A stretch of DNA of 28,470 nucleotides from Candidatus Pacearchaeota archaeon (GTDB lineage: Archaea > Nanobdellota > Nanobdellia > Pacearchaeales > GW2011-AR1). Each line of letters begins with the position of its first letter. The stretch's first letter is position 1. Shown piece by piece: positions 7,074 through 26,094 of the stretch. Location of the stretch: positions 1 through 28,470 of the forward strand of contig RFLO01000041.1 in NCBI GenBank assembly GCA_003693875.1, read 5' to 3'. The translations under genes and the position numbers were made by a program. The notes beneath the pieces were generated by a model. That model was not told the origin of the DNA. It worked only from the letters and a program-made list of their open reading frames with translations, and ran no database searches.

Positions 7074-7376
7074 ATGAAAATCCCAAAGAAAGTAAATCGG
7101 TATTGCCCTTTTTGCAAGAAAAAAACAGAACAAAAAATAAAAGAGCCAACCAAGCAAAAAGCAAGCTCACTTAAACGCGGAGGAAAAATAAGAATCAGGC
7201 TTCGCGGCCTATGGAGGGGAATTGGAAACAAGGGAAGATACTCCCGTATGAAAAACCAACAAAAAAGGAAAAGGAAAACTACAAAAAAAACAAATCTCCT
7301 TTACACATGCACTGAGTGTGGAAAATCAAAAAACCAAAAAAAAGGAAAAAGAACCAGCAAAGTCCTAATTGAATAA
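7074..7376 (+). CDS. rpl44e: 50S ribosomal protein eL42 (L44e)
   Basis: MKIPK...RYCPFCKK...YTCTECGK zinc ribbon, highly basic, KTTKK motif. Confidence 0.93.
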   Translation: MKIPKKVNRYCPFCKKKTEQKIKEPTKQKASSLKRGGKIRIRLRGLWRGIGNKGRYSRMKNQQKRKRKTTKKTNLLYTCTECGKSKNQKKGKRTSKVLIE

Positions 7377-15659: not shown

Positions 15660-15736
15660 CCATTTGTTGATAAAAGGCAGAACGCAACGGGCATAAATAG
15701 AGAAAAGTTTAAAAATGATACATGTTTAAAGCTAAT

Positions 15737-16228
15737 ATGAACAAAAGAGGTATATCGGCAATTGTTGCAACAGTCCTCATAATTCTTATAACTGTTGCGG
15801 CAGTAGCAATTGTCTGGTCTGTTATAATCCCCCTTATAAACAATTCAATAAAGGGCAGTTCTGTTTGCTTCGATGCATCAACCTCTCTTACAATAATCGG
15901 AGGATCTAAAACTTGCAAAACAAAGGATAATGTGTCCATAACAATTTCCCGCTCATCAAGAGACTTCAAGTTAGAAGATATACAGATCCAGCTAATAAAG
16001 TCAGATGGGGACTCCATATCAGTTAATGCAAAAAATCTATCAATAAAAAAAGGTCTCCCTGGAATAAATGAACAAAGAGTATTCATAATTAACAAAACAG
16101 ACGTAGGAAAAACCACCGACCTTAACAGTATTCAATCCGTAAAATTTGCACCCATAGTCATTACAAGCGATGGAGAAAAAAAGACATGTGATGCTTCTGC
16201 TGGGAAGGCAGTTCCCTCCTGTCAGTAA
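15737..16228 (+). CDS. Archaeal type IV pilin
   Basis: MNKRG|ISAIVATVLIILITVAAVAIVW. TTTAAAAA at 15708-15715 supports the start at 15737 (track start 15722). Confidence 0.9.
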   Translation: MNKRGISAIVATVLIILITVAAVAIVWSVIIPLINNSIKGSSVCFDASTSLTIIGGSKTCKTKDNVSITISRSSRDFKLEDIQIQLIKSDGDSISVNAKNLSIKKGLPGINEQRVFIINKTDVGKTTDLNSIQSVKFAPIVITSDGEKKTCDASAGKAVPSCQ

Positions 16229-16258
16229 TCTTTTATACCCCTTATTCTTTTAAGATTA

Positions 16259-16843
16259 ATGAAAAAAGGGATTTCGCCGCTGGTTGCCACTTCTTTCCTG
16301 ATAGTAATTGTAATGATAATTGCAACGATTATCTGGTTCTTTCTTTCTGCAAAATTTGGCCTTGAAGCCCGTCTTGCTTATGAATGCAAAAAGGCGTCAA
16401 ACCAGTTAAAACTCGTTGACACCTGCAAATACTCTAAGGTAGGCACCAGAGCAGAAAACATCTCGGTCATAATAGAAAGAAAACCAACAGAAGAGGCGGC
16501 TTCCATAAAAGACATTCAGCTGATAGCAAGAACCAAACTAAACGAAAAGTTTTCGGCAAGAATTGCACCCCTCTACGGAAAACAATCAATCCCCAAAGTT
16601 GGAAAAAGAAAAAGATACGACATAAATGTCTCGGGATTAATCCTTTACTTGACTCACTTAGGAATCGCTCCAATAATCGAAATTGAAGGAAAAGAAAGAA
16701 TATGCAACATCCAAGATGAACAAAGGATATGCTGGTGTGAAAATTTCATAAAAGAAGTAGAAAACGTAAACAAATCAATTGCTGCATACCTTAGAAGATG
16801 CCAAAAGCCAAAAGGCGATCCGCTAAAGGGTAAGTGGAGCTAA
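16259..16843 (+). CDS. Archaeal type IV pilin
   Basis: MKKG|ISPLVATSFLIVIVMIIATIIW. TTTTATA at 16231-16237. The stop lies inside a tandem duplication. Confidence 0.88.
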   Translation: MKKGISPLVATSFLIVIVMIIATIIWFFLSAKFGLEARLAYECKKASNQLKLVDTCKYSKVGTRAENISVIIERKPTEEAASIKDIQLIARTKLNEKFSARIAPLYGKQSIPKVGKRKRYDINVSGLILYLTHLGIAPIIEIEGKERICNIQDEQRICWCENFIKEVENVNKSIAAYLRRCQKPKGDPLKGKWS

Positions 16844-16855
16844 AGGGTAAGTGGA
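16822..16855 (+). repeat. Perfect 17-bp tandem duplication GCTAAAGGGTAAGTGGA x2
   Basis: Copies at 16822-16838 and 16839-16855 are identical. Confidence 0.95.
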
Positions 16856-16933
16856 AAACTGCCCCACCATCCGGCACACAATGATGAGCAAAGATGAAGT
16901 TAAATATATAAATCACTAAACATAACAAATCAC

Positions 16934-17452
16934 ATGAAAAGGGGGCAGGTTTGGGTTGAAACGGTCATCTATACACTTATTGGTCTTGCGATAATTGGTA
17001 TTGTCTTGGCGCTTGTAAAACCAAAGATAGATGAAAAAAAGGACATAGCAGCAATTGAACAGGCAATAGATTCTCTAAACATCCTTGACTCAAAAATCTT
17101 TGAAATCCAAACAATTCCAGGGAATAAAAGGGTAGTTACATTGAAAATTGGAAAAGGAGATCTCCTAATAGATGCTGAAAACGACGCTATAACATGGGAG
17201 CTGGAGTCAAATACACAATATAGCGAAGTAGGGAGTATAATAAAGATAGGTGACTTAAACGTCTTAACAAAAATAGATGGTAATCTCTGGAAAGTTTACA
17301 TACAGGCAAACTACTCATCAATAAACCTAACATACAATGGAGTTGACAAAACAACCCAGGTCCTAAGCGCTGCAAAAAACCCTTACAAGATTACCCTTGA
17401 AAATGTCGGAAAACAAAATAGAAAAACGGTAATTGACATTGGAGGTTTCTGA
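16934..17452 (+). CDS. Pilin-like protein (KRG|QVWVE), first gene of the pilus assembly operon
   Basis: MKRGQVWVETVIYTLIGLAIIGIVL class III signal with Glu at +5. TATA-like AAATATATAAA at 16902-16912. Confidence 0.85.
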   Translation: MKRGQVWVETVIYTLIGLAIIGIVLALVKPKIDEKKDIAAIEQAIDSLNILDSKIFEIQTIPGNKRVVTLKIGKGDLLIDAENDAITWELESNTQYSEVGSIIKIGDLNVLTKIDGNLWKVYIQANYSSINLTYNGVDKTTQVLSAAKNPYKITLENVGKQNRKTVIDIGGF

Positions 17453-18981
17453 TGGGAGATGTAAAGATTAACCTTAATCCAAAAAAACCACAGCTAACTC
17501 CGCTGTCGGATAAAACAAAGATAAATCTTCGTTACATGGTAATTGAACCATTTGTTTCAATTCACATCCACTGGGAACCAAAATCAGGCGAACTGATCTA
17601 CGAAGTAGAAGAACCCTTAATGGATGAAGAGGATGTAAAAAACCTCGAAAGTATAGAAAATTCTATGAGAGAAATCGTAAGCATCAACATGCTCCAGGAA
17701 AAAAGAACAATAGAAAGCCTCTTAGATTATGTTGAAAAAACCGCAAAACTCATCATATCAGAATTAGGATTAGAGATTGAAGAAGAAAAATTCCCAAAAA
17801 TAATTTACTATCTTTATCGAGACTTCATAGGCTTAAACGAAATAGAACCAATGATGCAGGACTGCTTCATAGAAGACATTGAATGCAACGGCGTAGGGGA
17901 GCCAATTTACATTGTCCACAGAATCTTCAGAAACCTGAAAACAAATGTAAAATTTACTTCAATAGAATCCCTTTCAAGCTTTGTTGAAAAAATGGCTCAA
18001 AAGGCAGGACGCTATATTTCCTATGCAAGTCCAATTCTCGATGGCAGTCTGCCAGATGGCTCGCGTGTAAACGCAACATATACAAAAGATATAACTTCTA
18101 AGGGCCCAACATTCACAATAAGAAAATTTACAAAAACACCTTGGACACCTACGCAATTGCTCGGTTTCCGCGAACTCTCCCCGGAAATGCTTGCTTATTT
18201 CTGGATTCTCTTGGAATATCAGTCCAACATAATGATTATCGGTGGGACAGCTTCTGGAAAAACCACGCTCTTAAACGCAATTGCTTTCTTCATACCTCCT
18301 GAAAAAAGAGTAGTTTCAATTGAAGACACAAGAGAACTAAACTTGCCAAGAGAAAACTGGCTACCCTCCGTAGTTCGCACAGGGCTAACATCTACGGGCG
18401 TTGGTGAAGTAGACATGTTTAGCTTGCTCCGCGGTTCATTCCGCCAAAATCCAGACTATGTAATCGTTGGAGAAGTTAGAGGAAAAGAAGCCTCTGTTCT
18501 CTTCCAGGGAATGGCATCCGGGCACGCATCAATTTCAACTATGCACGCAGATTCTGTTGAAGCTGTAATAAGAAGACTCGAAACGCCTCCAATAAATTTA
18601 AGCCCGATGCTCGTAAATAGTCTCGACGCTGTTGCAATAATGGCTCACGCAATAGTCAAAGGACATGAAACAAGACGCTTAAGGGAAATATCTGAAGTAG
18701 TCCAAATACTGCCCGACGGGACAGCGACAACAAACACTCCTTTTATCTGGGACCCTGCAACAGACACGTTCAGATTTCAGGCAAAAAGCGCTGTTTTCAC
18801 AAAAATCTCAAGAAAATATGGGATTAATCTGAGAAGTCTTGAAGACGAATTCCAAAAAAGAGCAAAATACCTGAGAGCTCTCTTCAGATACAAGATACTA
18901 AGTTACGAGACAGTCCAAAAATACATAAATGCCTACCAAAAAAATCCCGTTGGCATGCTTAAAAAATTCGGCATATACTAA
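17452..18981 (+). CDS. Type IV pilus/T2SS assembly ATPase (VirB11/TadA/FlaI family)
   Basis: IEDIECNG, LPDGSRV, GPTFTIRKF, Walker A GGTASGKTT, SIEDTREL, Walker B VIVGEVRG, STMHA. Confidence 0.96.
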   Translation: MGDVKINLNPKKPQLTPLSDKTKINLRYMVIEPFVSIHIHWEPKSGELIYEVEEPLMDEEDVKNLESIENSMREIVSINMLQEKRTIESLLDYVEKTAKLIISELGLEIEEEKFPKIIYYLYRDFIGLNEIEPMMQDCFIEDIECNGVGEPIYIVHRIFRNLKTNVKFTSIESLSSFVEKMAQKAGRYISYASPILDGSLPDGSRVNATYTKDITSKGPTFTIRKFTKTPWTPTQLLGFRELSPEMLAYFWILLEYQSNIMIIGGTASGKTTLLNAIAFFIPPEKRVVSIEDTRELNLPRENWLPSVVRTGLTSTGVGEVDMFSLLRGSFRQNPDYVIVGEVRGKEASVLFQGMASGHASISTMHADSVEAVIRRLETPPINLSPMLVNSLDAVAIMAHAIVKGHETRRLREISEVVQILPDGTATTNTPFIWDPATDTFRFQAKSAVFTKISRKYGINLRSLEDEFQKRAKYLRALFRYKILSYETVQKYINAYQKNPVGMLKKFGIY

Positions 18982-20348
18982 TGGCGAATCTTCATATAGG
19001 ATTCCCTTATCCTTTCCCTTTCAGCTTCTACAAGGCGCTCAACCTCTTCGTAATCTGAACCAACAGCAATAATTCTTGCAAGATCATGCGGCACATCAAA
19101 GCCTGGAAGAAAAGTTCCCCTTTCTGGAAAATTCAAAACAGAACTACGGGCTCCTCTGCCATCAAAAATAGACCTATCATCGTAGATGGGGTCAATATCT
19201 TTTGTAATCTTGGCCCTTCCATAGGTCTTAAAAATCCTCATAGCCCAACAGATATTCTTATCAGGCTCCCATAAATCCTCCTCGCCAATCTCCATGCCAA
19301 GACTAGCATAAAGCTCCATTTCAGAAATTGAGAGTCTATTAGATGGTCTGTTAGCCTCAAGACTTGCAACAAGAATTGATGTTGACCGATTTTTTCGTGC
19401 ATTAATCTCACTAAAAAGAACCCTTCCGTCCTCTGTTACAATCCAATCAAAGCCACAAAAACCAACATAGCCCTCCTTTCGCATAACCTCTGCAAGTTTA
19501 ATGCTTGCCTTTCTTATCTCCTCCTTTGAACGAGAATCAATTCTTGAAGGAAAAATATTTCCAAAATAATTGACATCTCTTACAATTATCTGGTCACTAA
19601 GTCCGAGATAATAAACTCTATCCCTTGAAATCAACACCTGTGAATTGGGTGAAGCAATTTTTCTTTCCCAAGCAGTCATCAAAAAAGGAGGTGAAGCTTC
19701 AAAATCGGAAATCTCCTCGAGATTCCTAAGATGTTTGGCAGACCTCCCACCGGCACCGCGAACAGCAGTCATAAACACCCCGTCTTCCGAATTAGAAAAA
19801 ACATTCCTAAAATTATCCATTGCCTCTTCAAAGGAATTCGCAACAACTCCGTAAGGCACACCAATCCCAAGTTCCCTTGCCAAATTATATGAAAAAATCT
19901 TGTTTGAATACTTTCGTGCAAGATTCCCATCTGCCCCAAGAACAAAAAACCCGAGTTCGCGAAGCTTCTCTATCGTAGGAGTCGTAGAATAGGAATTAAA
20001 AACTATCTTCCTGCCGTCACGAATGTCTTCAAGCTTACGGCTAACCTCCCGTTTAAAACTTTCCGCAGAATCTTTCCATTTAAAGTCTATCTTTTCTCCA
20101 CGCAACGGACAATCACCCCCTGACTCAACAACCAACCGATGCAAACAGCCTTCGCTTAAGGGAAGACTCATACGGCTCCGAGTAAAACCACCATAAGCAA
20201 CCTCAACCCTTTTAAGAGACCTATCTGCATAATTCCCCCCATTAACTGTAACAATTAAATCTGGAAAGCCAATGTCGCAGGTAAGGCTGCCTATATGGGT
20301 TGGATCCTTTCCCATCGCAATAAGGCAGTATTCACTTTCAAGGGACAT
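18978..20348 (-). CDS. ATP-grasp ligase, PGM1/pre-ATP-grasp peptide-ligase-like
   Basis: NKIFSYNLARELGIGVP, GAGGRS loop, SPNSQ...DQ...YFGNIFPS, GYVGFCGFD, EINAR. Confidence 0.8.
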   Translation of the reverse strand: MSLESEYCLIAMGKDPTHIGSLTCDIGFPDLIVTVNGGNYADRSLKRVEVAYGGFTRSRMSLPLSEGCLHRLVVESGGDCPLRGEKIDFKWKDSAESFKREVSRKLEDIRDGRKIVFNSYSTTPTIEKLRELGFFVLGADGNLARKYSNKIFSYNLARELGIGVPYGVVANSFEEAMDNFRNVFSNSEDGVFMTAVRGAGGRSAKHLRNLEEISDFEASPPFLMTAWERKIASPNSQVLISRDRVYYLGLSDQIIVRDVNYFGNIFPSRIDSRSKEEIRKASIKLAEVMRKEGYVGFCGFDWIVTEDGRVLFSEINARKNRSTSILVASLEANRPSNRLSISEMELYASLGMEIGEEDLWEPDKNICWAMRIFKTYGRAKITKDIDPIYDDRSIFDGRGARSSVLNFPERGTFLPGFDVPHDLARIIAVGSDYEEVERLVEAERERIRESYMKIRH

Positions 20349-20360
20349 CGCAGTAAAAAG

Positions 20361-20378
20361 ATTTTTAAACTTAAAAAT
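20361..20378. promoter_or_regulatory. Compact bidirectional promoter / inverted repeat ATTTTTAA-AC-TTAAAAAT
   Basis: Plus-strand TTTTTAAA (20362-20369) and minus-strand TTTTTAAG (20377-20370) each end 22 nt before ATG 20391 and 20348. Confidence 0.7.
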
Positions 20379-20390
20379 TTTTCCGAAAAA

Positions 20391-21386
20391 ATGAAAGCAG
20401 ACCTCCCATACTACTGGTGTCGCGATAGCATAGACCGCAACATAATTCTAAACGAAGCAGCAAGAAGGGGAATAGAAATAGAACCATTTCCACAAAGCCA
20501 AGGATACTTTCTATTAACATTTAAGGGCCACAAAGAAATTCTGGGTTATTTAAACACAAGTTCTCTTGGATGGCTCGCAGGCAGAATTTCAAAAAATAAA
20601 AGACATACAAAATGGCTTTTAAGAAAAGAGGGGGTAAAAACCCCAATAGGGGACGCATTCAAGAAGGGAGAAGAGGGCAAAATATCCGATTGGGTAGCTG
20701 AAAAAAAAGTTATAGTAAAACCAAACAAAGGGGCTTGCGGAAAAAATGTTTATCTATGTAAAGATGCCTACGAAGCCATTCAGGCAGCAAAAGAAATCTG
20801 GAACTCCGGAAGTCCAGCGGCATTGGTAGAGGAGTTTTTTCCTGGAAAAGAGTACCGAGTTTTTGCAACAAGGGAAGGCTTTGTTGCTGTATGCAACCGC
20901 GTTCCCGCAAATGTCATCGGAGATGGTCGCTCAACAATAGAAGATTTGGTAGAAGAAAAAAACAAGGATAGGGGCCCTCCTGAGGAGCATTATGTTTGGC
21001 TTCCAATAAAAATTGATAATGTTGTAATTGAATTTTTAGAATCTCGGGGAAAAAACTTGAAATATGTTCCAAAAGAAGGGGAACAGGTTTTCCTGCGGGC
21101 AAACAGCAATTTATCAACCGGCGGAGACTCAATCACAATACCGCGAGAATCTCTCGATAAAAAAGTAGAAGATATCGCAATGAGATGTCTTTTTGCAGTG
21201 CCGGGAATGGCATACGCTGGAATTGACCTTATCTGCGAAGACATAAGAGGCTTTGACGACTACCGAGTAATTGAGATAAATAAATCTCCGGGAATGACTA
21301 ACCACCATTACCCAAATTTCGGAGAGCCTCAAAATGCCGCAGGCGCCCTCATCGACCAAATCTTTCCAGAAACAAGAGGATTGTAG
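20391..21386 (+). CDS. Stand-alone ATP-grasp ligase, cyanophycin synthetase N-domain / GshF(GshAB) C-domain-like
   Basis: EAARRGI, VIVKPNKGACGKNV, LVEEFFPGKEYR, RVPANVIGDGRSTIEDL, NSNLSTGG, AGIDLI, IEINKSPG. The true start is probably Met33 of the track ORF. Confidence 0.88.
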   Translation: MKADLPYYWCRDSIDRNIILNEAARRGIEIEPFPQSQGYFLLTFKGHKEILGYLNTSSLGWLAGRISKNKRHTKWLLRKEGVKTPIGDAFKKGEEGKISDWVAEKKVIVKPNKGACGKNVYLCKDAYEAIQAAKEIWNSGSPAALVEEFFPGKEYRVFATREGFVAVCNRVPANVIGDGRSTIEDLVEEKNKDRGPPEEHYVWLPIKIDNVVIEFLESRGKNLKYVPKEGEQVFLRANSNLSTGGDSITIPRESLDKKVEDIAMRCLFAVPGMAYAGIDLICEDIRGFDDYRVIEINKSPGMTNHHYPNFGEPQNAAGALIDQIFPETRGL

Positions 21387-21398
21387 ATTTAAATCCTC
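21376..21398 (+). terminator. Inverted repeat spanning the ATP-grasp stop codon (possible terminator hairpin)
   Basis: GAGGATT-(9 nt)-AATCCTC. Confidence 0.25.
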
Positions 21399-21431
21399 AA
21401 CATTAATAAATGCCACTCACCTCTTTTTTTA

Positions 21432-21593
21432 ATGGTTGACCTGCTATTTGTTGAACATCTGATAGACTCAATGTATTCTGCAACAATAAAACTTGAAAAG
21501 GCAATCAAGGAAAACCGGCCAGAAGAGATAAGCAAGTTAAGAACAATGATATTTCACCTCCAACAAAACCTTGACAAGGTTACAAAAATCTAA
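21432..21593 (+). CDS. 53-aa amphipathic helical protein upstream of the platform genes (MVDLLFVEHLIDSMYSATIKLEKAIKENRPEEISKLRTMIFHLQQNLDKVTKI)
   Basis: Open frame from ATG 21432 to TAA 21593, 2 nt before the next ATG. TTAATAAA at 21403-21410 ends 22 nt upstream. Helical-hairpin pattern. Not in ORF track. Confidence 0.75.
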   Translation: MVDLLFVEHLIDSMYSATIKLEKAIKENRPEEISKLRTMIFHLQQNLDKVTKI

Positions 21594-21595
21594 AA

Positions 21596-22819
21596 ATGCT
21601 TGAAAATATAAAGGAAAATTTAAGGCAGGAAAAATTGCTAATTGAGAAAGCAAGAGTTCTAAGAAAGGCTATGCTTCAAAATCCTGAAAAAAAACAAATT
21701 TACAAAAAAAGCATCATAGCAATCCTCAACCAGATAAACCTCCTAAACAGAGCCTTGCCAGAATTGTTAAAAGAAACCTCCCCCTTAAAAACAATACAAA
21801 GAAAAAATCCAGTTCAGATAACTCACAAAACACCTGAGAAAAAAAGAGTTATCACAATAAATCGCGAAGATAAAAAGCGGTATCTCGAAGAGCTTCGGTT
21901 ATCAGAAGAAGGGCTGGCAGCCATAAGAAAGTCGCATCAGGAAGAAAAAATTGTCCAGACAAAACCAAATGAATTTGCAAGACTCTCCAATAAGGTTTTT
22001 AGACGATACTCAGAAAAGTTAGCGCCAAAGATGAAAAATCTGGCAGAGGACCTAAAACGCGGAAATGTTCCATTTCTTCTCTCAACCTATATTTCAATGG
22101 CGATAATGTCAACACTTATAAGCTTCATCACAGGAGCATTAATCTTCGTAACACTTGTCATAGCCGACCCATCAAAAGTAATTCTCTTCTGGATTCCAAT
22201 TGTCTTGCCACTCATAACCCTCTTTTTGTTCTACATCTATCCAGCAAGCGAAGCCTCTTCGTCTAAAAAAAGAATCTCTCAAGAACTTCCTTTCGTTGCA
22301 ATACATATGGCCGCTATCGCCGGTTCGGATATAGAACCATCAAAAATATTTAGAATCATTGCCGAATCAAAGGAGTACCCCAGCATAGGAGCAGAACTAA
22401 AAAAAGTCCTTTCACAAGTAGAAATATACGGTTATGATCTTGTAACATCCCTTAAAAATGTGGCAAGGCTCACATCAAACGAAAAATTAGCAGAGCTTTT
22501 TAATGGACTTGCAACAAATATCAGCACAGGAGGGGAACTAAAAGATTACCTCGAAAAAAAGGCTGAAACCTTTCTTATGGACTACAAACTCGAAAGAAAA
22601 AGATACACCGACCTTGCAGGAACTTTTATGGATATCTACATCTCCATCTTAATCGCAGCACCACTAATCCTGATGATGGTCTTCATAGTTATGAATATAT
22701 CTGGCTTAACCATTGCTGGCCTTGGAATAAACACGCTACTTGCAATAAGCATCGCTGCAATAGTCCTTGTAAATGTCATATTCCTCGTCATCCTCTCAAT
22801 AAAACAACCAAAGATATAA
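21596..22819 (+). CDS. Type IV pilus platform protein (TadC/FlaJ, T2SSF family) with about 150-aa soluble N-terminal extension
   Basis: ISQELPFVAIHMAAIAGS, YGYDLVTSLKNVA...LAELFNGL...TGGELKDYL, plus TM helices. Confidence 0.9.
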   Translation: MLENIKENLRQEKLLIEKARVLRKAMLQNPEKKQIYKKSIIAILNQINLLNRALPELLKETSPLKTIQRKNPVQITHKTPEKKRVITINREDKKRYLEELRLSEEGLAAIRKSHQEEKIVQTKPNEFARLSNKVFRRYSEKLAPKMKNLAEDLKRGNVPFLLSTYISMAIMSTLISFITGALIFVTLVIADPSKVILFWIPIVLPLITLFLFYIYPASEASSSKKRISQELPFVAIHMAAIAGSDIEPSKIFRIIAESKEYPSIGAELKKVLSQVEIYGYDLVTSLKNVARLTSNEKLAELFNGLATNISTGGELKDYLEKKAETFLMDYKLERKRYTDLAGTFMDIYISILIAAPLILMMVFIVMNISGLTIAGLGINTLLAISIAAIVLVNVIFLVILSIKQPKI

Positions 22820-23643
22820 TGGCAAAACTAAGATACTTGGCAGGAATTCTGATTCTCCTTGCAGCAGTCGCTGTAGAATTTTTCACAATAAGTCAGAAGA
22901 ATACAAGAACTTTTATCATTGTGATAACCATCATTCTTTCTTCTCTGCCCTTCATAATTTCAATTATCATTTCTCAAAAACGGCAAACGGAAAAAGAAGA
23001 AAGATTCCTTGAATTCTCGCGTGACCTTGTGGAAAGCACAAAATCCGGAACCCCTATTGTCAAAGCAATACTAAATGTTCAAAAAAAGGACTACGGCACC
23101 CTAACGCCCCACATACAAAAACTTGCAAGCCAGCTAACTCTTGGAATAACACTAAACGATGCACTCCAAACCCTTGCAAGGGAATCAGGAAGCCGAGTTA
23201 TAGCAAGAGCCGTAGCCCTTATATCCGAAGCTGAAAGAGCCGGGGGAAAAATTGAAACCATCCTTGAGTCAGTCGCAAATTCCGTAAATCAAATAGAATC
23301 CCTAAAAAAAGAAAGAAAATCTTCTATCGCAAACCTGATAACTCAAGGTTACATCATCTTCATTGTTTTCATAATAATCATGTTAATCCTTGAATTCAAA
23401 ATTCTACCGCTTGTATCCGATGTAACCGCTCCGTCAGACAACATCAAAATAAAAGCGCGCCCACTCGCACCACAGGATTTTTCAAAGCCGCTTTTCATAA
23501 TGCTAATTATTCAATCACTGTTCGCAGGAATTGTAATCGGCAAAATATCCGAAGGCTCCATTAAATACGGAATAAAGCATTCTTTTATCCTATTGTCCCT
23601 AACTCTCCTTGTCAAAACAGGGGCAAATGCCTTCTTCGGATAA
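22819..23643 (+). CDS. Second TadC/T2SSF platform protein
   Basis: FLEFSRDLVESTKSGTPI, DYGTLTP, LISEAERAGGKI, AGIVIGKISEG. TAATG coupling. Confidence 0.9.
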   Translation: MAKLRYLAGILILLAAVAVEFFTISQKNTRTFIIVITIILSSLPFIISIIISQKRQTEKEERFLEFSRDLVESTKSGTPIVKAILNVQKKDYGTLTPHIQKLASQLTLGITLNDALQTLARESGSRVIARAVALISEAERAGGKIETILESVANSVNQIESLKKERKSSIANLITQGYIIFIVFIIIMLILEFKILPLVSDVTAPSDNIKIKARPLAPQDFSKPLFIMLIIQSLFAGIVIGKISEGSIKYGIKHSFILLSLTLLVKTGANAFFG

Positions 23644-24380: not shown

Positions 24381-24793
24381 GCAAAAGAGGATGGCTAAGG
24401 ATAATGGAAGCAACAATTGCGATAATGATAATAACCGGAGTCCTCCTGATAGCCCACATAAACAAACCAAATCAACCAAACAAAGCAACAGAGTTTATCC
24501 TTCAAACAGAAAGAAAGATTCTAAAAGACATAAGAACAAATTCTACCCTTCGCAAATACTCCCTTGATAAAAATGAAAAAAAACTTAAAGATTACGCAGA
24601 AAAAATAATGCCAGGCTCTACAGCAGTTGAGGTGCGTATTTGCGAAGCTGACAGGCCGTGCAAACCAAAAAACAAAGCCTTCATAATAGGAAGCAGGGAA
24701 CGTGAAGTAATTGCTGAAGAAACCTTAATTTCGTCAAACCTTACCCTCTTTGCTCCAAAAAAAGTCAAAATTTTTGCATACCAGAGAAGATAA
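24374..24793 (+). CDS. Minor pilin-like protein (KRG|WLRIME)
   Basis: MVGKRGWLRIMEATIAIMIITGVLL class III-like signal; C-x6-C pair in the head domain. Confidence 0.72.
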   Translation: MVGKRGWLRIMEATIAIMIITGVLLIAHINKPNQPNKATEFILQTERKILKDIRTNSTLRKYSLDKNEKKLKDYAEKIMPGSTAVEVRICEADRPCKPKNKAFIIGSREREVIAEETLISSNLTLFAPKKVKIFAYQRR

Positions 24794-26094
24794 TGGCATT
24801 TGACATAATTATCGGAAGAGATGCAAGTGACAAAAAAAACTTCGGAAAGCGCGGCCTTGCCTTCATCGGAAAAAGCTATGTAAAGATGGGCAATTATACT
24901 TCACTCTCAAACAAAATATTTCTTGACATAGCAAGAACTCACGTCATCCTAATTTCTGGAAAACGTGGTAGCGGAAAATCGTATACCATAGGAACTATAG
25001 CAGAAGCCCTAAGCGACCTTGGAAGCGAAGAATCTGGAAACATTGCCTCTTTAATTTTTGACACTATGGGAATCTTTTGGACGATGAAGTTCAAAAACGA
25101 AAAAGACAAAAACCTCTTAGCAGAGTGGGAGCTAAAACCAAAAAACCTGCCAATAGAAGTTTTCTCACCTTTTGGTTACTTAAAAGAGTATCAACAGGCA
25201 GGAATAAGTGTGGACAAAGAGTTTGCAATAAAAATCTCAGACCTCGAAGCATCAGACTGGATAAGCCTTTTCAACCTAAACTTTACAGAGCCAACAGCTG
25301 TCCTAATAGAAGAAGTTATAACAAAGTTAAAAGAAAAAGAAAGCTTCAATTTTGGTGATATTTTCTCTGAAATTCAGGAAACAAAAAACACAAGCCAGGA
25401 TACAAAGAATGCCTGCATTGCACTTTTTCAAGCCGCAAAAACTTGGAAAATTTTTGATGAAAAAAAAGGGACTCCAATAGATGAACTAATATCTGCCGGC
25501 AAAACCTCAGTAATTGACCTTTCTATGTATGCTTCTGTGGGCTCGTTTAATATCCGCGGCCTTGTAATTAGCCTTGTCTCAAAAAAATTATTCACAAGAA
25601 GAATGGAAGAAAGAAAAAAAGAAGAAATACAATCCATCCAACACGGCATCAATTACGAAAGATACACCATAAGACGAAAACTCCCTCTTGTCTGGATTTT
25701 TATTGATGAGGCACATGAATTCCTACCCCTAAATGGAAAAACACCTGCAACAGATGCCTTAGTTCAACTGCTAAGAGAAGGTCGCCAGCCTGGAATTTCC
25801 CTTGTCCTTGCAACACAGCAACCTGGAAAAATTCACACAGATGCAATGACTCAGTCAGATATTGTAATCTCCCACAGGGTAACTGCAAAACCAGACGTAG
25901 AGGCACTCAACTCAATTTCACAATCCTATCTTTACGAAAGTATAGTTGATAAAATAAACCAGCTGCCAAAACTAAAAGGTTCTGCTATAATCCTTGATGA
26001 CAACTCAGAAAGGATATACCCTGTAAGAATTAGGCCACGTTTCACATGGCACGGGGGCGAGTCTCCTGCTGCAATAAAAAGGTCAGAAGAATAA
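24793..26094 (+). CDS. HerA/FtsK-superfamily (DUF87-like) P-loop ATPase lacking the HAS barrel
   Basis: Walker A SGKRGSGKS, IFDTMG, Walker B WIFIDEAHEFLP, LREGRQPGISLVLATQQP. TAATG coupling to the upstream pilin. Confidence 0.92.
   Translation: MAFDIIIGRDASDKKNFGKRGLAFIGKSYVKMGNYTSLSNKIFLDIARTHVILISGKRGSGKSYTIGTIAEALSDLGSEESGNIASLIFDTMGIFWTMKFKNEKDKNLLAEWELKPKNLPIEVFSPFGYLKEYQQAGISVDKEFAIKISDLEASDWISLFNLNFTEPTAVLIEEVITKLKEKESFNFGDIFSEIQETKNTSQDTKNACIALFQAAKTWKIFDEKKGTPIDELISAGKTSVIDLSMYASVGSFNIRGLVISLVSKKLFTRRMEERKKEEIQSIQHGINYERYTIRRKLPLVWIFIDEAHEFLPLNGKTPATDALVQLLREGRQPGISLVLATQQPGKIHTDAMTQSDIVISHRVTAKPDVEALNSISQSYLYESIVDKINQLPKLKGSAIILDDNSERIYPVRIRPRFTWHGGESPAAIKRSEE

Follow-up and report, generated by a model that had tools for sequence, protein, structure and literature searches.

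A divergent pair of ATP-grasp ligase genes at the boundary between a filament ATPase and its platform operon in a Pacearchaeota genome

In a 28,470-nt stretch of contig RFLO01000041.1 from a Candidatus Pacearchaeota archaeon (the whole stretch is here called the window), two genes for ATP-grasp ligases, of 456 and 331 amino acids (aa), lie between the gene for a type IV filament assembly ATPase and the platform operon, which opens with a conserved gene of 53 aa. How did this segment come to lie there, and did its arrival change the expression of the genes on either side? A sequence-only reading of the window had proposed that a cassette entered a TAATG stop/start overlap, duplicated the hexamer TAATGG and brought a TATA box that now restarts transcription of the platform genes. 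The analysis reported here points, with good confidence, to an ordinary gene gain, in which a divergent two-gene ligase module was acquired at an operon boundary, between the ATPase stop codon and the ancestral platform promoter.

The comparison set comprised the orthologous ATPase loci of 24 genomes of the same genus and of 11 genomes from other families of the order. All the window proteins were mapped onto these 35 loci, whose ATPase orthologs show 61-75% identity. The source contig (C14) belongs to an archaeal bin of 0.52 Mb that is 70% complete, and a single public run contains the stretch, a hot-springs metagenome that is probably its source.

Gene order, borders and the TAATGG repeat

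The usual order in the relatives is pilin-like genes, ATPase, 53-aa gene, platform-N, platform-C, p232, p139 and HerA. The succession of ATPase, 53-aa gene and platform genes is conserved within the genus and in other families, which bears out the proposal that the segment is an insertion. In most of the 35 relatives the ATPase is followed directly by the 53-aa gene or a platform gene, and in none of them by an ATP-grasp gene. Neither ligase gene has an ortholog in the 35 genus genomes searched, where the 456-aa gene had no match and the 331-aa gene a single distant one (23% identity). Across 400 genomes of the order, the former gave three distant matches (24-27% identity) and the latter was matched in four genomes. 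Since the outgroup families already carry the ATPase beside the platform genes, a gain on the source lineage is the parsimonious explanation. Judged from gene order and gene content, the 2.4-kb segment is a lineage-specific insertion.

The relatives also indicate what the site looked like before the insertion. The distances from the ATPase stop to the ATG of the 53-aa gene are 30, 31, 32, 38, 42, 54, 56, 59, 79, 81, 120, 287 and 397 nt, and of the 13 relatives whose 53-aa gene is recognizable, 12 have such a spacer (the exception, L024, is weighed below). An A/T box stands 28-42 nt before the 53-aa ATG in all 11 short spacers of relatives that lack the insert; in eight it is TTAATAAA, often as AACATTAATAAA, and in three it is TTATAAAT or TTAAAAAT, with the longer box-to-ATG distances accompanying a ribosome-binding site of the GAGGT type. 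In the window, the box is AACATTAATAAA (21399-21410), its TTAATAAA part being placed at -29 relative to the ATG, and the 45 nt at 21387-21431 resemble the spacers of the relatives, such as that of L025, which reads ...TCCTCGCAACATTAATAAA directly after the ATPase stop. This box, which had been taken as brought in by the cassette, is therefore ancestral, since it precedes the 53-aa gene in all the cassette-free relatives with a short spacer (11/11).

On the left side, the C-terminus of the ATPase (..KFGIY*) ends where its orthologs end (..KYGIT*, ..KYGVT*), these aligning up to residue 508 of 509 in the 35 relatives, so that the left border is the ATPase stop itself. This stop (TAA, 18979-18981) is in its ancestral position and is overlapped by the stop of the 456-aa gene (TAG, 18978-18980), the two genes sharing 4 nt. 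From the conservation of the flanks, the right border lies between 21387 and ~21398, and the inserted DNA extends over ~18982-21390, comprising two complete genes and essentially no flanking non-coding DNA.

The sequence elements on which the cassette proposal was built are all present. TAATGG occurs at 18979 and at 21430, where the ATG at 21432 opens the 53-aa open reading frame (ORF); TAATG stop/start overlaps are found at 7374, 22817 and 24791; the box TTAATAAA lies at 21403-21410; and an in silico deletion of the segment leaves a formally valid TAATG junction like the three real ones. However, the interpretation of the TAATGG pair as a target-site duplication failed, as the match is at chance level and the right copy lies inside ancestral DNA. 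Four of the six bases of this copy (ATGG) are the conserved Met-Val start, written ATGGTG or ATGGTT in most relatives, and it lies 35-45 nt away from the actual insertion border; with the second TAATGG being part of the ancestral sequence, no duplication was made on insertion. In the left copy, three bases are the ATPase stop, and TGG belongs, on the opposite strand, to the final codons of the 456-aa gene (...IRH*). The left copy thus overlaps the last codon and the stop of this gene, and a cassette edge placed there would cut that stop codon in two. The window has 22 copies of the hexamer, where 15.6 +- 3.4 would be expected. For pairs of genome positions separated by 2451 nt, a 6-mer common to both was met in 2% of trials within +-6 nt, in 8% within +-10 nt, in 21% within +-15 nt and in 51% within +-25 nt, and at the distance of the right copy from the border such a match would arise by chance in at least half of trials. 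The TAATGG match is a chance match and not a duplication.

The restored TAATG junction fared no better. It implies an empty site reading ...ATATACTAATGGTTGAC, with neither spacer nor TTAATAAA, while the homologous Met-Val start forms a TAATG overlap in no relative and is preceded by a spacer of 30-397 nt in 12 of 13, and all 11 cassette-free relatives examined have conserved the box together with its flanking bases. A spacer at the empty sites in place of an overlap was the outcome that the sequence-only reading had itself named as counting against it. Other marks of a mobile element were sought as well. The segment contains no transposase, integrase or recombinase, its only two ORFs being the ATP-grasp ligases, and the domain search of these ORFs agrees with the earlier remark that it carries no mobility gene. 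No terminal repeats, inverted or direct, were found at the two borders, where only scattered imperfect matches of 10-20 nt occur, and the relatives lacking the insert do not show single-copy empty sites of a duplicated target. Like insertion sequences and integrative cassettes that make target-site duplications, the insert is a discrete block of foreign genes at an intergenic site; unlike them, it has no transposase, integrase, terminal repeats or verified duplication, and its borders are gene ends. Taken together, it is extremely unlikely that a cassette entered a TAATG overlap, duplicated TAATGG and supplied the TATA box that now serves the platform genes. Had this proposal held, it would have described a new kind of recombinase-free insertion targeting stop/start overlaps, which the data do not support.

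The same comparison bears on the claim that the insertion decoupled ATPase from platform expression, which cannot be upheld because in the relatives a promoter-bearing spacer already stands between them. Seven relatives have -8 nt and three have +1 nt at the junction between the 53-aa gene and platform-N, and platform-N and platform-C meet at -4 to +2 nt in about half of the relatives. The coupled junctions of the window are thus tight in the relatives too, whereas the ATPase and the 53-aa gene are spaced, indicating that ATPase and platform were never coupled. On this sequence evidence, the ATPase and the platform operon were separate transcription units before the insertion, and since the platform promoter is ancestral and was kept, nothing was decoupled.

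Six of the 24 genus-mates have no platform operon after the ATPase (G012, G024, G020, G006, G019 and G016, with loci L033, L038, L039, L041, L042 and L043, respectively). In G024, G006, G019 and G016 the ATPase stop is reached or overlapped by a convergent gene, the overlap in G019 being of 4 nt as in the window, and in G020 such a gene lies 187 nt beyond the stop; in G012 a same-strand RNA methyltransferase gene follows the ATPase. In G024 the platform gene shares a contig with the ATPase but is 47 kb distant from it, in G020, G006 and G016 the two are on different contigs, and no platform gene was found within 8 kb downstream of the ATPase in G012 or G019. The 3' flank of the ATPase is a transcription-unit boundary and a recurrent synteny breakpoint. 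The pilus ATPase and the platform operon are thus independent of each other in this genus, and it is at their junction that synteny repeatedly breaks. In a further relative (G014, locus L040), 1.1 kb lie between the ATPase and the platform gene, with two ORFs of 108 and 175 aa that have no Pfam match.

The gain at this boundary may be pictured as follows. The module would have been acquired in the lineage of this DPANN archaeon, into a short spacer between two existing transcription units, its landing point lying just past the ATPase stop (18981) and just upstream of the box of the 53-aa/platform operon (21399-21410). A likely route would be illegitimate recombination, or another form of recombination working without a dedicated recombinase, followed by trimming of the non-coding flanks. 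After this, each ligase would be expressed from its own box in a shared bidirectional region, the platform operon would still be driven by its ancestral promoter, and two intact ATP-grasp carboxylate-amine ligases would act in sequence, giving a dipeptide and then an extended product. Read in this way, the locus offers a clean and well-delimited case of lineage-specific gene gain at a transcription-unit boundary of a streamlined DPANN genome, with zero non-coding flank.

The two ligases and their arrangement

The 456-aa protein belongs to a small family. Three proteins, with 43-47% identity, came out of a word-based search among 5.8 billion, and when 1.84 billion cluster representatives were searched exhaustively with HMMER, 13 matched at E<1e-30 and 114 at E<1e-10. 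The AlphaFold (AF2) model built from 36 family members (predicted local distance difference test score, pLDDT, 94.5; predicted template modelling score, pTM, 0.93) has the three-domain ATP-grasp fold, matched by Foldseek with probability 1.00 to biotin carboxylase, PurD, PurT and peptide ligases (template modelling scores, TM, 0.55-0.67). The Foldseek matches in the PDB were generic ATP-grasp ones and pointed to no specific function. The Mg/ATP motif D301 / E314-x-N316-x-R318, which in the window protein reads GFD...SEINARKN, is conserved among the 36 members, with D301, N316 and R318 invariant and E314 present in at least 90%.

The profile of the family has as top match in the PDB the L-propargylglycine--L-glutamate ligase BesA (8yi6, 1.3e-14), and also matches the Streptomyces ATP-grasp peptide ligases and PGM1; the NCBIfam model of LdmS, for which there is a precedent as an L-amino-acid ligase (PMC9486568), was matched weakly, at 1.1e-9. 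The scores were far below the equivalog cut-offs, with 37.6 against 475 for LdmS and 20.4 against 750 for BesA. In Pfam, the window protein matched only ATPgrasp_YheCD, at 19.1 bits and so below the gathering score of 26.8, and ATP-grasp_3 was matched by 28 of the 36 family members. The protein shares with BesA (8yi6), LdmS, PGM1 (3wvq) and the Streptomyces peptide ligase (8ynd) the three-domain fold, a length of ~410-475 aa and the D...ExNxR motif, but differs from them in showing ~15% identity in structural alignments and in belonging to a rare family of its own, with ~13 representatives at E<1e-30. These matches and the model suggest that it represents a rare type of L-amino-acid or peptide ligase akin to BesA, LdmS and PGM1.

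The 331-aa protein aligns over its full length with parts of two larger enzymes: the G domain of CphA1 (7wac, 2.8e-37; residues ~169-484) and the C-terminal ATP-grasp domain of GshAB (3ln6, 1.9e-31; residues ~429-749). It keeps the E-I-N motif, and the start at 20391 is supported by its homologs, whose alignments begin at residues 13-19. The cyanophycin synthetase model TIGR02068 was matched at 1.2e-58, at positions 163-474 of 862, which is the G-domain part only, and with a score of 198.9 against a cut-off of 850. CphA1 itself consists of an N domain, the ATP-grasp G domain and a Mur-ligase-like M domain, in ~860-910 aa. The match to GshAB was likewise confined to positions 436-755 of 756, with a score of 192.2 against a cut-off of 425. 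Being a stand-alone domain that lacks the N and M domains of CphA1 and the GshA half of GshAB, the protein is neither a cyanophycin synthetase nor a GshAB. In a maximum-likelihood tree of 57 homologs it falls in a clade of six members (support 100/98), whose known members come from Woesearchaeota, in one case, and otherwise from contigs that carry archaeal marker genes, and which adjoins a larger clade containing proteins of Patescibacteria.

Two further contigs with proteins of this kind were noted. Three tandem paralogs of the 331-aa type, with 43%, 34% and 34% identity to the window protein, lie on a single Logan contig (L083, 813-3842), which suggests multi-step peptide assembly by this enzyme family. 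On a bacterial contig resembling the candidate phyla radiation (CPR; L062, 1080-6020), a ligase of this type follows a set of 7TM-transglutaminase, ATPgrasp_ST and RimK genes.

The short region between the two ligase genes contains a box for each of them: the plus-strand box TTTTTAAA at 20362-20369, 21 nt before the ATG at 20391, and the minus-strand box, the reverse complement of CTTAAAAATT, at 20370-20379, 21 nt before the ATG at 20348. A palindrome (I17) was noted at these divergent boxes. The spacing agrees with the earlier observation that the segment uses the TATA spacing of the host, and corresponds to the usual leaderless geometry of archaea. This 42-nt region may well act as a bidirectional promoter.

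The two-gene arrangement recurs away from filament genes. A homolog of the 456-aa protein with 43% identity (P0003), encoded on an archaeal contig of 42.7 kb, is divergent from a 332-aa ATP-grasp_3/RimK gene, the two lying between RIO1 kinase and PHP genes; the 332-aa partner was matched by length, Pfam families and orientation only. Next to a second homolog (P0002) there is likewise a divergent gene, truncated where the contig ends. The exact pair was found only at these two loci. Other homologs of the 331-aa protein have as neighbours YheC/D-type ATP-grasp, alanine dehydrogenase, GATase and GNAT genes. Two partners of such homologs, a YheCD-type protein of 349 aa (L060) and a protein of 407 aa (L084), had no detectable relationship with the 456-aa protein.

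By analogy, the two enzymes probably act in sequence, the one making a dipeptide and the other extending or polymerizing it. A precedent for such a sequential pair of ATP-grasp ligases is RhiM/RhiC of rhizocticin, as outlined in PMC13579937; there too, two different ATP-grasp ligases stand side by side, with a working model of a dipeptide that is then extended. As far as that account goes, the likeness is at the level of the superfamily, and the present pair differs in its archaeal context and in having no other biosynthetic genes in the insert.

The position of the pair between pilus genes, near many prepilin-like genes, raises the question of whether it was recruited for the filament system, for example for peptide modification of pilins or platform proteins, so that its location would be functional. 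Some ATP-grasp enzymes do modify proteins, among them the RimK and TTL families. However, all the relatives run the same locus without the pair, the homologous pair occurs in a RIO1/PHP context and homologs of the 331-aa protein stand beside alanine dehydrogenase, GATase and GNAT genes, and in the window the pair has a putative promoter region of its own and is not co-oriented with the operon. Such a recruitment is very unlikely, and a functional tie between the pair and the pilus is not supported.

The preferred reading, a ligase module gained at an operon boundary, combines two things already known, ATP-grasp ligases and ordinary gene gain. A bolder version would see the pair as a self-contained, horizontally moving DPANN module for peptide synthesis, which makes an undescribed small peptide or cyanophycin-like polymer and integrates at operon boundaries without a recombinase of its own, with the 3' flank of the ATPase as a recurrent landing and breakpoint site; this we regard as unlikely. 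In any case, the rare and uncharacterized ATP-grasp pair may interest enzymologists in search of new L-amino-acid ligases.

Points weighed against the gain, and the assembly

Several observations weigh against the gain of a ligase module at this boundary or against parts of the picture given above. The two ligase genes are host-like, with GC content at the 86th percentile, GC content at third codon positions (GC3) at the 47-54th and codon fit at the 31-57th, and a compositional signature of transfer, sought in both genes, was not found. This could result from an old gain, or from a donor whose own composition was similar, for example another DPANN archaeon. The best homologs are only 43-48% identical and the donor is unsampled. 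A genome of the same species with an empty site was not found, the closest ATPase ortholog being 75% identical; a scan of metagenomes with the ATPase for a closer empty-site relative returned 10 loci (best identity 73%), and a scan of genome contigs returned five, all with 61% identity or less. The borders were set by conservation alone, to about +-10 nt. In locus L024 (G013), ATA takes the place of the start codon of the 53-aa gene, and the closest ATG in the same frame stands upstream and would make the gene overlap that of the ATPase by 14 nt, which could reflect an unusual start codon, a sequencing error or a true overlap of the ATPase and 53-aa genes in that genome. Regarding the enzymes, the role as sequential ligases is drawn from analogy only, and the placement of the 331-aa protein in its clade is tentative, as its branch is long (1.16) and its composition atypical. 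Finally, the 57 nt at 20164-20220 are unbridged by the contigs of the independent Logan assembly.

The host-like composition and codon usage, together with the very tight packing with the neighbouring genes, could also be explained if the ATP-grasp pair were ancestral at this site and had been lost in the relatives. This is highly improbable, as the pair is absent from the site in all 24 same-genus and 11 other-family genomes and is essentially absent from those genomes altogether, while the outgroup families have the ATPase beside the platform genes, so that many independent losses would be needed.

The origin of the window, a metagenome bin that is 70% complete, and the break between Logan contigs at 20163/20221, inside the insert, raise the possibility that a chimera of assembly or binning joined unrelated DNA to the pilus locus. 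However, independent Logan contigs from the only run containing the stretch match the window over 16500-20163 and 20221-21756, with 0-1 mismatches and at similar depths of 13.4 and 10.2. These contigs cross both junctions of insert and host, indicating that the insert is not an assembly artefact. The 57-nt gap falls within the uninterrupted ORF of the 456-aa gene, whose homologs match it from end to end (residues 1-454), and the composition is host-like, all of which leaves a chimera with next to no probability. Continuity across 20164-20220 rests on the source assembly and on this uninterrupted ORF; the break and the lower depth on its right-hand side could be due to strain variation inside the insert. 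A search for an excised allele in this run, which is kept as contigs, gave none that joins across the insert, a result that shows only the presence of the insert.

Organization of the surrounding locus

The features of the locus are collected in Table 1. It contains what characterizes archaeal type IV filament systems, an ATPase of the ArlI/PilB type and a polytopic T2SSF platform protein. The ATPase scored 401.6 bits with the NCBIfam model FlaI, under the cut-off of 550, and the two halves of the platform protein, which are joined by the TAATG overlap at 22817, match positions 10-249 and 277-541 of the NCBIfam ArlJ profile. As the equivalog cut-offs of both FlaI and ArlJ were missed, these scores do not fix the type of filament (pilus or archaellum).

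Table 1. Features of the window around the ligase pair, in order of position
Feature	Coordinates	Strand	Basis or remark
Prepilin-like genes, several	upstream of ATPase	+	gene list
Type IV filament assembly ATPase, 509 aa, ArlI/FlaI-like	17452..18981	+	Pfam T2SSE 2.4e-31
ATP-grasp ligase, three-domain, 456 aa	18978..20348	-	convergent with ATPase
Left TAATGG	18979..18984	+	ATPase stop, then the final His codon of the minus-strand ligase as reverse complement
Divergent promoter region (putative), 42 nt	20349..20390	.	two back-to-back A/T boxes, direct sequence reading
ATP-grasp ligase, stand-alone, 331 aa	20391..21386	+	homologous to CphA1 G domain and GshAB C-terminal ligase domain
Ancestral ATPase/53-aa spacer, kept right of the insert	21387..21431	+	box AACATTAATAAA at 21399-21410
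Right TAATGG	21430..21435	+	ATGG is the Met-Val start of the 53-aa gene; inside ancestral sequence
Conserved 53-aa gene, first of platform operon	21432..21593	+	tblastn matches in 13 relatives
Split platform protein, 407 aa + 274 aa, ArlJ/FlaJ-like T2SSF	21596..23643	+	Pfam T2SSF 5.4e-15 and 9.2e-18
Two small proteins	between platform genes and HerA/DUF87 ATPase	+	gene list
HerA/DUF87 ATPase	24793-26094	+	gene list

The split of the platform protein into N- and C-terminal genes is also kept in the relatives. Upstream of the ATPase, the pilin-like genes p168 and p194 (window 15722-16843) are paralogs, of which one to four tandem copies are found among the relatives (L025, L029). Two relatives show changes of their own further downstream. 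In G009 (L025, 6940-9234), 2.3 kb of extra DNA lie between platform-C and p232. In G007 (L035, 6920-9334), the ortholog of the HerA/DUF87 ATPase matches in two pieces, residues 1-60 and 44-433, separated by ~1.06 kb; this break, near the Walker A region, could be due to an intein or an inserted element.

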